From: Lama guanicoe
Lineage: Eukaryota
NCBI GenBank assembly: GCA_013239625.1
Contig: MU057352.1
Location: forward strand, 29,581,277 to 29,645,276
Reading direction: 5' to 3'
Length of the DNA: 64,000 bases
Position 1 is the first letter of the stretch. Each line of letters begins with the position of its first letter. Below, one piece after another: positions 43,141 to 46,158 of this stretch. The position numbers and the translations under genes were made by a program. Under the pieces are notes generated by a model that had not been told where the DNA came from, searched no databases, and saw only the letters and a list, made by a program, of their open reading frames with translations.

Positions 43141-44126
43141 TTTTTCATAGGTGCTGTTTCACTTTCAGGGAAACCATTCCAAATTCTTACCAGGGAGAAT
43201 TACTCACTCTTAACCCCATGTTGCCGAAAGAAAAGAGCGATGGCTGTTCATGATCTGTTCCGGTTCTTTGCATCACTGCCTGTCACACATCCTCATCCCA
43301 GCAAGCTACAGTCTCGCTGGGGGACGCGCGGTCTCGCTGGGGGACGAGTGGGCTTGTATAACTGCTGGAGGAGGTGACGGAGAGCGAGTGACTGCTAGCC
43401 GGGCTGGTCCCAGGCTCCTCATCTGCTCCCCTGACCTCAGGACGGATGCTCTGCCCTGACTCCTGGCTCCCACAGAGCAAGCAATTCCAAGGACACGGTC
43501 TTGAGAGCAATGTGTTGTTAAGAGCCTTTGGACAGTGCACTTGACTGAACCCTGGTAAGGCCTCTCTATAAACTTCGAGGGTGCTGGCGGGTGGGCGGTG
43601 GGCGGTGGGGAGAACTATTCGTCATTTGGTCCAAGACAAGCCCCGTATGTAAGTTATTTGCTTATTCGACCTGCCACCTACCGTCTGGAGCGTCTGCCTC
43701 TCTCTTCCCTCTCTCGCTGCTCCCCGTGGGCAGCCCCCGACCAGCACACCAGCCGGATCCCCGGTGGGTCAGCGCACTCGCTTTCATTACTTGACTTTGA
43801 GGATAATTCAAAGTGGCTTCTTCACCCGGATCCTAGACATCAGACATTTTCAAAGGGCTCCTACCTGCCAACATATGTCTCTGTAGTCTTTCTATCCCCA
43901 CTGCCAAGGTCCCGCAGCACGGGCTTCTGCAGGGGAGCCATGCCCATCCCCCCGCAAAGTCCTCTCCCCCTGCTGTCAGCATCAGTGGAAATAAATCTGT
44001 GTGAATCCTTTCATGGCACAGTTGAGGCAATTCGCTTGCAAGACAAGTTTCCATGTCACATGTGTATCTATTTTTTTTCTTTGATTCTAATGTGAAACTG
44101 GTTAACATTATATATATATATATATA

Positions 44127-44616
44127 TTTAATCTAGAATGAGAGAGGGAAGTCCCTCTCTCTATTGATGGGACAGCAAGTAAATTCCACTTTAGGGTTTA
44201 GACTCCAGGCGTCACCTTGCCCTGCAGCAGAGCTAATAAGTATCTTGGAGAGAGTTGAAATCATGCTGGATAAGAAAGAGAAGAATGGACTGGCGAGTGG
44301 GAGGTCACACTGGTGCAATAACTGAACACTTCCCTGTGAAAGAACAGGCATGTTTCTCATAATGCCCCGAAGAAAATTCTGTGCTGCAATAAAGCATGGC
44401 ACAGGTCGTGAAATATATTTCAGTGATCCCAGTTGTGCAAAGAGTAGGGTGGACTGACGTGGCGATACCAGGTTCTCCCGCACTTGAGAAGTCCAATCTG
44501 AGGTTGGAAATCTATTCAATGCGGCTGTTGGGCGTGCCAGCTGCGCTAGCACTCGATGAAGAGTTGGCACTGGACATCTTTCGATGTTAGCTCCAATATA
44601 GTTAATCTGATTCTGT
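44127..44616 (-). ncRNA. Candidate terminal exon of an unannotated minus-strand transcript (lncRNA or small/de novo ORF)
   Basis: Acceptor ctttttgtggctttcag|ACAG at 44617/44616; non-repetitive sequence; ATTAAA at 44132-44127. Pairs with the donor at 45301. Motif evidence only. Confidence 0.4.
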
Positions 44617-45199
44617 CTGAAAGCCACAAAAAGGTGGAAACCATGTCCTCTGGCCTCAGGGCAGGGCCCAGCACATACTGGACGCTCAGTAAGGACATAG
44701 ACAGTGAGTAACTAGACCCCCGTTTCATCCCAGATCACAGGAGACTAACTGGTAGGTGCCCTAAACTTAGCTATTGACTGAAAAACACAGGAACAAAATT
44801 TTAGGAGCCTTCTGGGTAGTGTATTAGCTTTAAGCAGCCGGGAAAGCTTGAACTAAGGACAATCCCTTAGCCTGAATTCCCCGTTCCAATTGCGAAGGCA
44901 CAAGCCAGTAAATGTAATCACCTTGTATTCACATTCACGTCACAGCGATTCCTTACCCGGTGCCTGTAACTGTCTCAATTATCTGAAGTGGTTTAACACC
45001 ACAGCCAAAAGCAGACTAGAGTTGGCAATAACAATAAAACTGAAAAGGGTCCTGGCTACTTTACGGCTCCGTGGGACCATTATGCTCCTCAGTATTCAAG
45101 TGAGGCAGATAACAAGAGGGCATTAAAATTTTAGCACCCTCAGACAACAGTATGGTTATTGCTTATTAACTATACCAAAGGAGCACAATTAGTTCAATA

Positions 45200-45400
45200 G
45201 GTAGCGTCATGCGTGCCAGCGACAGAGCGGAGGGAGGCAGCGGCCACGTGCAGGCCTGAGAGGCAGCCCCGGCGCCGCCCGGGACCCGCTCCTCAGCTCA
45301 CCGCACGCAGACGGAAGTGACACACGCGGCTGGAAGAGACCTTCATCCGGCGCCCTTTCGTTTCAAGTGTGGATTACAACTTGCGCACCGCAACAGTCAT
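45200..45400. promoter_or_regulatory. Small CpG-rich promoter-like island
   Basis: About 20 CpG in about 190 bp; ETS motif CGGAAGTG (45312-45319); E-box CACGTG (45245-45250); TGCGCA near 45382. Minus-strand Inr-like TCACTTC followed by splice donor GCG|GTGAG at 45302/45301. Confidence 0.65.
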
Positions 45401-46158
45401 TTTCATGGGGTTACTTTTTTCCCCTTGAAAGAAAATGAGAAACATTTCAAGCCTTTTCTTTTTTTCTTGGCTGTCTTCTCCCAATGAGAGTGAGGGGAGA
45501 GGACGTGAAGGGAGAGAGAGAGATGTCCGAATGTTTGTCAGCTGTAGCTGTTATGAAAAGGAATTCATGAATCAAAAGGCAAGCACACTTGGAATTCAAA
45601 AAATGCTGCCACGTTGTTTTCGAGAAGCACTTCTGAAGTTTGTCTTAGCATCTTCACGTGTTGCTGAACATTGTTCCCCACCAAAGGGTGATTGCTTTAA
45701 TTTTTTTTTCATGTATTTTTTAAATCCCTCATCTGATGGATTAAAAATGGCATCTGATCGTTGTTTTAGTTTATATGTCCTTGATTTCTAGTGCATTTTT
45801 CATTATGCCAAATGTTTGCCGTTTATTTTTTTGAAAACCAAATTTCCTAGTTTAACTGCTTGTCTGTTGTCCACATGGTTTTTTTTTTAATGCATCACAT
45901 AATGGAAGGAAAAGCCAGTATGCAACCAATTTGGCAATATATATTGTAAAATTTTGACCAATACAAAATGACAATGACCATATACGAACCTGGACAAATT
46001 TGTCCAGGCTCTTCGATTACATTTATTACGGTGAGACGCTCACTTCCTGGCGAGATGGCCGAGCCAGGGAGTGGGCAGCTTCAGATATCGGAAAGTTCAG
46101 TGTTACATTGACCTAACGACTGCTGTCAATAGTGTCTTTCATGCTTCCTTTTCTACAG

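Follow-up and report, generated by a model that had tools for sequence, protein, structure and literature searches.

A candidate orphan promoter and a long, probably fortuitous open frame between KHDRBS- and FAM135-family genes of Lama guanicoe

Does a small CpG-rich patch in the genome of Lama guanicoe drive a spliced minus-strand gene, and does the choice between tandem acceptors decide whether this gene yields a short peptide or a long protein? An earlier note proposed both for a two-exon candidate in the window, by which we mean the whole stretch of 64,000 nucleotides analysed, located in a 32.7-Mb contig of a 2.05-Gb genome. When the sequence was re-read, all letters and coordinates of that note were reproduced. 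Exon 1, counted from the ATG at 45346, has 15 codons up to the donor GCG/GTGAGC. Joined to an exon from 44616, it encodes 19 residues (MKVSSSRVCHFRLRATESD, then a stop). Joined to an exon from 44612, it enters an open frame of 159 codons (192 from stop to stop; 44133..44612, minus strand) and encodes 174 residues, ending with the TAG at 44135-44133. A third AG (exon from 44606) is in frame with 44612 and gives 172 residues. A separate ORF of 21 residues, with A at -3, lies at 44512..44577 on the minus strand.

The CpG-dense patch (45205..45404) contains 21 CpG in 200 bp and is promoter- or enhancer-like. Our local background consisted of the window plus 200 kb fetched per side (464 kb, about 1/4,400 of the genome), and within it the CpG density of the patch falls in the top 0.1% of 200-bp windows. 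On the minus strand, a GC-box-like hexamer followed by an ETS-type core, CCGGATG, occupies 45344..45355, and a match to the TCT start motif (YC+1TYTYY, +1 at 45338) occupies 45333..45339. An Inr match (BBCA+1BW, +1 at 45318) at 45311..45321 overlaps a GABP-like site, which has eight of the nine letters of CCGGAAGTG, reversed. The TCT and Inr consensus motifs were taken from passages of PMC5580651, and the GABP consensus from passages of PMC2077898. Six CACTTCCG sites occur in the 464 kb, and the sole CpG-rich one, which is this GABP-like site, is in the candidate patch (19-20 vs 3-7 CpG per 200 bp). The GABP-like site, the TCT match, the Inr match and the donor lie within 40 nt, ordered as in a first exon. 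Judging from these letters, the patch is quite probably a real transcribed promoter.

The CpG/ETS island described earlier is promoter-like in its letters, with its CpG density, GABP-like site and donor, but the patch is small (only about 250 bp) and has company. Nineteen patches in the 464 kb, the candidate among them, reach at least 17 CpG per 200 bp, and several also have ETS cores and donors. Such shortness and such company would suit another reading, in which an enhancer, or a CpG-rich remnant that is silent, accounts for the patch, no splicing takes place, and the acceptor cluster represents a cryptic site next to an old repeat. We consider this possible yet rather unlikely, and the first-exon order of four motifs within 40 nt speaks against it. 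On the minus strand, two donors fall in the first 400 nt and the first poly(A) hexamer is 1.2 kb away; on the plus strand, a poly(A) hexamer at 45740 precedes any donor. These are small numbers. A plus-strand consensus donor (AAG/GTAAGT near 46259-46254, 8.3 bits) is found about 900 nt away divergently, beyond two poly(A) hexamers. Elsewhere on the contig, at L036 1351-1900 (G000:C55226 ~29,522,800), a CpG patch is at least as promoter-like as the candidate, having six ETS-type cores and, on the plus strand, a donor of 6.8 bits; it may be a short tandem repeat.

Where transcription would start matters for the coding idea. The proposed ATG at 45346 forms the last three letters of the ETS-type core and has a weak context (-3 C, +4 A). 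The suspicion that the true start lies downstream of this ATG stands in part: the ATG is upstream of two of the three start-motif matches (45338 and 45318), but a second Inr match, with its +1 at 45370, lies upstream and would keep the ATG in the RNA. From the placement of these motifs, the ATG at 45346 may be absent from the transcript altogether. If transcription began at 45338 or 45318, the RNA would have the ATG of the 21-residue ORF as its first one, whichever acceptor is used, and there would therefore be no coding switch.

The splice sites, which were scored with a rough matrix built from approximate frequencies, allow several transcript models. Donor 1 (45302/45301; 45296..45304, minus strand) scores 3.9 bits, which places it in the top 1.6% of GT. 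Such a moderate donor, of a strength found 1.1 times per kb per strand, would not be out of place in an enhancer or silent patch. Donor 2 (CGG/GTAAGG, 44957/44956; 44951..44959, minus strand) reaches 5.7 bits (top 0.4%) and was absent from the earlier two-exon model. An internal exon at 45039-44957 was tried and rejected, as the nearest acceptor upstream of donor 2 (exon from 45039) scores only 0.2 bits; the models give 22 residues. In the tandem acceptor cluster (44604..44636, minus strand), the exon starts at 44616, 44612 and 44606 score 4.6, 0.4 and -4.9 bits, respectively, and the first AG to follow a 30-nt pyrimidine tract free of AG is that of 44616. An alternative acceptor of 5.0 bits (44774..44797, minus strand; exon from 44777) would be met before 44616, and homologous letters are implied by P0008, one of the gene calls considered below. 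When it is joined to the exon with the ATG at 45346, 25 residues result. Acceptors further down score 7.2 (44333), 7.4 (44265) and 6.0 bits (44132). Among eight single acceptors joined to exon 1, only 44612 and 44606 give more than 115 residues. The coordinates of the two-exon model hold, but the model is one among several, given the stronger and earlier acceptor at 44777, the stronger donor at 44957/44956, and a poly(A) hexamer that is lineage-specific.

The acceptor cluster has a repeat as its neighbor. Directly upstream of it, at 44642..44708 on the minus strand, lies what is left of an old dispersed repeat, of which the flanks contain 45 copies (9.9 bits vs at most 6.4 in 300 shuffles). 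We take it to be of the L2 type. The repeat grew from a motif-seeded search; a single-seed search did not grow. This adjacency is in line with a cryptic acceptor beside an enhancer or silent patch. A further decayed stretch, A-rich on the plus strand and presumably LINE-1-like, covers positions 1-2150 of the window. The kinds of repeat present point to a camelid.

How unusual is a switch of this kind? In the 464 kb there are 1,412 acceptors of at least 4.6 bits. In 86 of them another AG follows 4 nt further down, and 498 have an AG no more than 10 nt away that shifts the frame. Twelve directly precede a frame of at least 159 codons, and one, presumably the candidate, shows the full flip between a short and a long product. 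Stop-free frames of at least 192 codons number 21 in the same 464 kb; the candidate is among them, as are two or more coding frames of FAM135. The parts of the pattern are common; their combination is locally rare, but was chosen after the fact.

Tandem alternative splice sites (TASS), both NAGNAG and with 4-nt shifts, are the closest known system in splicing (passages of PMC1449888 and PMC8055015), and as is usual in the catalogues, the strongest of the three AGs within 10 nt is the upstream one. The candidate differs in that the shift would connect exon 1 to a long frame with no other link to it, in that another lineage lacks the second AG, and in that the sites are predicted. In passages of the same two papers, small acceptor shifts are mostly treated as sequence-driven noise, with upstream sites used more. 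Regulated frame-shifting sites do exist, because almost half of the tissue-specific coding minor sites break the frame, according to the part of PMC8055015 that bears on this.

Other lineages were informative. An exhaustive protein search among 1.84 billion representatives returned three hits: P0002 (E 8e-27), P0004 (E 5.5e-5) and P0003, a repeat protein that was dropped as a chance match. No named relative was found among these representatives. Both P0002 (lineage 1; cluster of four members) and P0004 (lineage 2; cluster of two) are gene calls without a name, made on assemblies of sequencing runs. Orthology was read from the protein sequences, and differences at the DNA level come from back-translation. 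When aligned to the frames of the window, the orthologous calls are colinear with it from 44796 to 43992, with a changing frame. P0007 (lineage 1) matches frame 1 over 44608-44567 and then, from 44531 on, frame 3; P0004 matches frame 1 over 44731-44558 but frame 3 over 44438-44238, so that in both lineages the frame changes at most about 90 nt from the acceptor. Because both lineages change frame, the first 27 exon-2 residues of the 174-residue protein are without a continuous in-frame counterpart. The frame and start expected of a conserved coding gene are kept in neither lineage. What a de novo gene would lead one to expect, orthologous non-coding DNA in outgroups, is present, colinear and with frame changes. 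Metagenome scans for orthologous DNA confirmed none of 227 stretches, and two pattern matches were GC-rich chance hits.

The same calls bear on the individual signals. In lineage 1, P0007 has F-R-P where this genome has F-R-Q, which by back-translation implies that the second AG is absent. In lineage 2, ten residues of P0004 are identical across the acceptor cluster and, as far as amino acids can tell, compatible with both AGs; for the second AG, the comparison of these two lineages thus gives one probable absence and one compatible case. The earlier proposal had the coding output flip with the choice of tandem acceptor. This is disfavored by the weak second AG (0.4 vs 4.6 bits) and its absence in lineage 1, by the frame behind the acceptor, which is not kept, and by a core that looks neutral (see below); we put such a coding switch as very improbable. 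The ten residues around 44616 also touch the enhancer or silent reading: their full identity in lineage 2, vs 38-51% in two aligned blocks, is a weak hint of constraint on the acceptor and thus goes against that reading; P0004 and P0008, which continue without splicing across the presumed end of the intron, favor it.

The end of the long frame fared similarly. An ATTAAA directly after the TAG was confirmed at 44132-44127, but it is lineage-specific and runs into a (TA)n microsatellite (together 44108..44132, minus strand). Both are absent in lineage 1, where P0005 has D-F-F-N-Q in their place, as inferred by back-translation. The TAG position is read past in another frame in lineage 1, and the stop is not kept. 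After the TAG, 99 further codons are open in the long frame (44132-43833, minus strand), and P0005 aligns there in the same frame.

A microprotein gene, with the 19- or the 21-residue ORF as its product, would draw on the A at -3 of the latter and on its ATG being the first one, given a start at 45338 or 45318. We deem it highly unlikely. P0007 has K-A-V vs K-D-V here, and the ATG of the 21-residue ORF would accordingly be absent in lineage 1 by back-translation. The sequence of this ORF is low-complexity and Ser-rich. It is followed by one TAG and then by 68 more open codons in frame (44577-44305, minus strand). No relative of the 90-residue read-through, with the stop read as X, was confirmed among five candidates of a word-index search of limited sensitivity.

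Selection on the long frame was judged at the protein level in two lineages, against a neutral simulation alone. For the simulation, window DNA was mutated with transition bias and CpG decay, frames were kept open, and identity was matched, in about 200 runs each. The mean BLOSUM62 score of the observed mismatches was -1.02, -0.98 and -1.12 vs -0.67, -0.69 and -0.70 in the simulations, and 94-96% of the neutral simulations score at least as well as the observed mismatches. Identity is 67/118 inside the core and 18/30 beyond the stop. In these compared residues there is no sign of protein-level selection on the long frame. Coding under selection finds no backing here, as the replacements are not conservative relative to the neutral simulation and the frame breaks in both lineages.

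In favor of coding, this genome and lineage 1 share an open core of 118 codons, with a single in-frame indel of 4 residues between them. The open part spans 44531-44178 in lineage 1 and 44438-44238 in lineage 2. In a simulation with assumed indel ratios, this core stays open along a neutral branch in 0.1-3.7% of cases per lineage. As a frame has to be open to be called as a protein, one or two open cores may be within reach of chance if some tens of lineages were sampled. The shared open core is a mild point for the coding idea. The long frame looks like chance because its counterparts in two lineages change frame without protein-level selection.

Other properties of the frame agree with this. 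It has no Pfam family and no third-position GC skew (0.51/0.47/0.43). The predicted fold of the 159-residue exon-2 part, from a 7-sequence alignment, has a mean pLDDT of 39.1, and such a model is uninformative to weakly negative for a folded protein. A word-index protein search with the exon-2 frame confirmed none of 14 candidates. With an alignment, one of 2,668 was confirmed, and this search missed P0002 though it was present in both collection and query, so negatives of the word index are weak. An exact look-up of four frames gave no match, in which a GTG start read as M would escape.

A young de novo gene could still make a 174-residue protein from a minor 44612 isoform, or 75 residues from an internal ATG at 44360. 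Exon 1 has exactly 15 codons in frame with the long frame, ATTAAA follows directly after the stop, the core is open in another lineage, and translated long ORFs in enhancer RNAs are reported in PMC12667400. Set against these are the weak AG and ATG context, the frame changes beside the acceptor in both lineages, the neutral replacement pattern, the lack of a confident fold, and no named relative among the 1.84 billion representatives; we find this reading very unlikely. The candidate resembles de novo genes and the translated enhancer-RNA ORFs of PMC12667400 in that its long ORF lies in DNA that was ancestrally non-genic and the frame is broken in other lineages, and differs in being read from sequence alone, without a sign of selection. 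In the most elaborate version, a lineage-specific de novo gene is emerging: an ancestral non-coding RNA gained the second AG, the upstream ATG and a microsatellite-made ATTAAA, and splicing wobble toggles between the 19- or 21-residue peptides and a 174-residue protein on a frame open in more than one mammalian lineage. This we hold to be extremely doubtful.

The locus is single-copy, with one match only in four DNA searches of the genome. No paralogue or parent locus was found elsewhere in the genome, apart from two weak, stop-containing protein hits (E 0.12 and 1.5) in searches of limited sensitivity. A retrocopy or a duplicate of the 5' end of a known gene was rejected, as neither DNA nor protein searches of the genome gave a parent locus. 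The locus lies between KHDRBS-family and FAM135-family genes. Exons of the latter, on the minus strand 140-210 kb above, comprise a DUF676 exon (E 3.9e-13), an exon of 685 codons and a DUF3657 exon; the former is marked by a pair of plus-strand Qua1 exons, about 1.3 Mb below. These are the nearest coding exons found, about 140 kb and 1.3 Mb away. The earlier note had warned that a match to the 5' end of a known gene would remove the novelty. It was looked for, and because the neighbors are these distant exons, there is no recognisable 5' end of a coding gene here. No protein-coding gene overlapping the candidate was found in a Pfam scan of 26 of the long frames in the 400 kb of flanks plus L015, a scan that short exons could escape.

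We take the interval to be the KHDRBS3-FAM135B gene desert of human 8q24.23. The KHDRBS-FAM135 gap is about 1.4 Mb here (G000:C55226 28.31-29.76 Mb), and that between human KHDRBS3 and FAM135B is, we assume, about 2.5 Mb. The human lncRNA LOC401478/FLJ45872 of 8q24.23 shares this interval, the neighbors being matched here by family and the gene names being assumed. It presumably starts much closer to FAM135B than the candidate patch lies. A CpG patch with donors on both strands, at L011 5501-5950 (G000:C55226 ~29,740,800), is situated some 20-25 kb below the last exons assigned to the FAM135 family; from human coordinates, we take it as a candidate orthologue of the LOC401478 promoter.

The patch might also be an internal or alternative promoter of a far longer, desert-crossing minus-strand lncRNA, the LOC401478/FLJ45872 orthologue, in which exon 2 is not terminal. 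The strand and span of FLJ45872 are, by our assumption, suited to this. The lineage-specific ATTAAA fits, as do more donors further down (43864 and 43681), an exon-like unit at 43364-43191, and the placement of human FLJ45872 distal to KHDRBS3 in a passage of PMC2702821. We think this improbable, since the exon from 44616 has no donor of at least 3.5 bits before 43864, which is too far for a usual internal exon. The unit at 43364-43191 on the minus strand lies in a CpG-richer patch, with a NAGNAG acceptor of 5.1 bits and the donor CTG/GTAAGA, also 5.1 bits, and could be a further exon of the same putative RNA. LOC401478 is listed among differentially methylated entries in the part of PMC13639308 concerned. 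Literature on FAM135B together with KHDRBS3, lncRNA or alpaca gave no description of the locus; supplements could hold transcript coordinates of the human region.

A snoRNA host gene of the 5'TOP (SNHG) type would share the TCT match, the ETS site, the very short first exon and the GTGAG donor, but differs in that no snoRNA was found in the window. At gathering score, Rfam had no match in the window, snoRNAs included, and two sub-range scans by E-value gave chance-level hits only, none a credible snoRNA (about 70 intronic bases were covered by the gathering-score scan only). A hairpin in intron 1 folds no better than shuffles (z -1.43). With no intronic C/D or H/ACA snoRNA in the Rfam scans, this option was rejected.

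We therefore lean, with little more than even confidence, toward a CpG patch that is the orphan promoter of a minor minus-strand lncRNA, and a 174-codon frame that is a chance open frame in neutral DNA. If the longer-lncRNA variant is counted in, an orphan-promoter lncRNA becomes probable. The locus shares with known orphan CpG-island/ETS (GABP) lncRNA promoters a short CpG patch far from coding genes, a GABP-like site, a short donor-bearing first exon and no conserved ORF; it differs in that its patch is only about 250 bp long and known from sequence alone. An ETS/GABP-type factor would open the patch, and RNA polymerase II would start at or near the TCT (45338) or the Inr (45318), downstream of the proposed ATG. 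Early donors would favor elongation on the minus strand, and a low-level spliced non-coding RNA would be made in the KHDRBS-FAM135 gap. The spliceosome would mostly take the first AG (44777 or 44616), and use of the AG shifted by 4 nt would be minor noise. What is observed are the motifs with their scores, the single copy, the neighbors, and the frame changes and neutral replacements of the orthologous calls; from these letters we infer promoter activity, start site, splicing, 3' end and the non-coding status of the RNA. Between a lncRNA, a microprotein gene and a young de novo gene, as offered earlier, the lncRNA fits the sequence, and the coding options are disfavored by the frame changes, the neutral replacements and the missing 21-residue ATG in lineage 1.

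As best explained, the locus is one more candidate orphan promoter with its lncRNA in a gene desert, and matters little. It also serves as a caution, since chance is enough to bring together a long ORF, a nearby AG and an ATTAAA. Were the 44612 isoform translated, the locus would provide a clean natural example of splice noise that supplies a ready-made open frame with a start codon. De novo genes have been proposed to arise in this way, among others, and if the example held true, its age could be estimated from close relatives.
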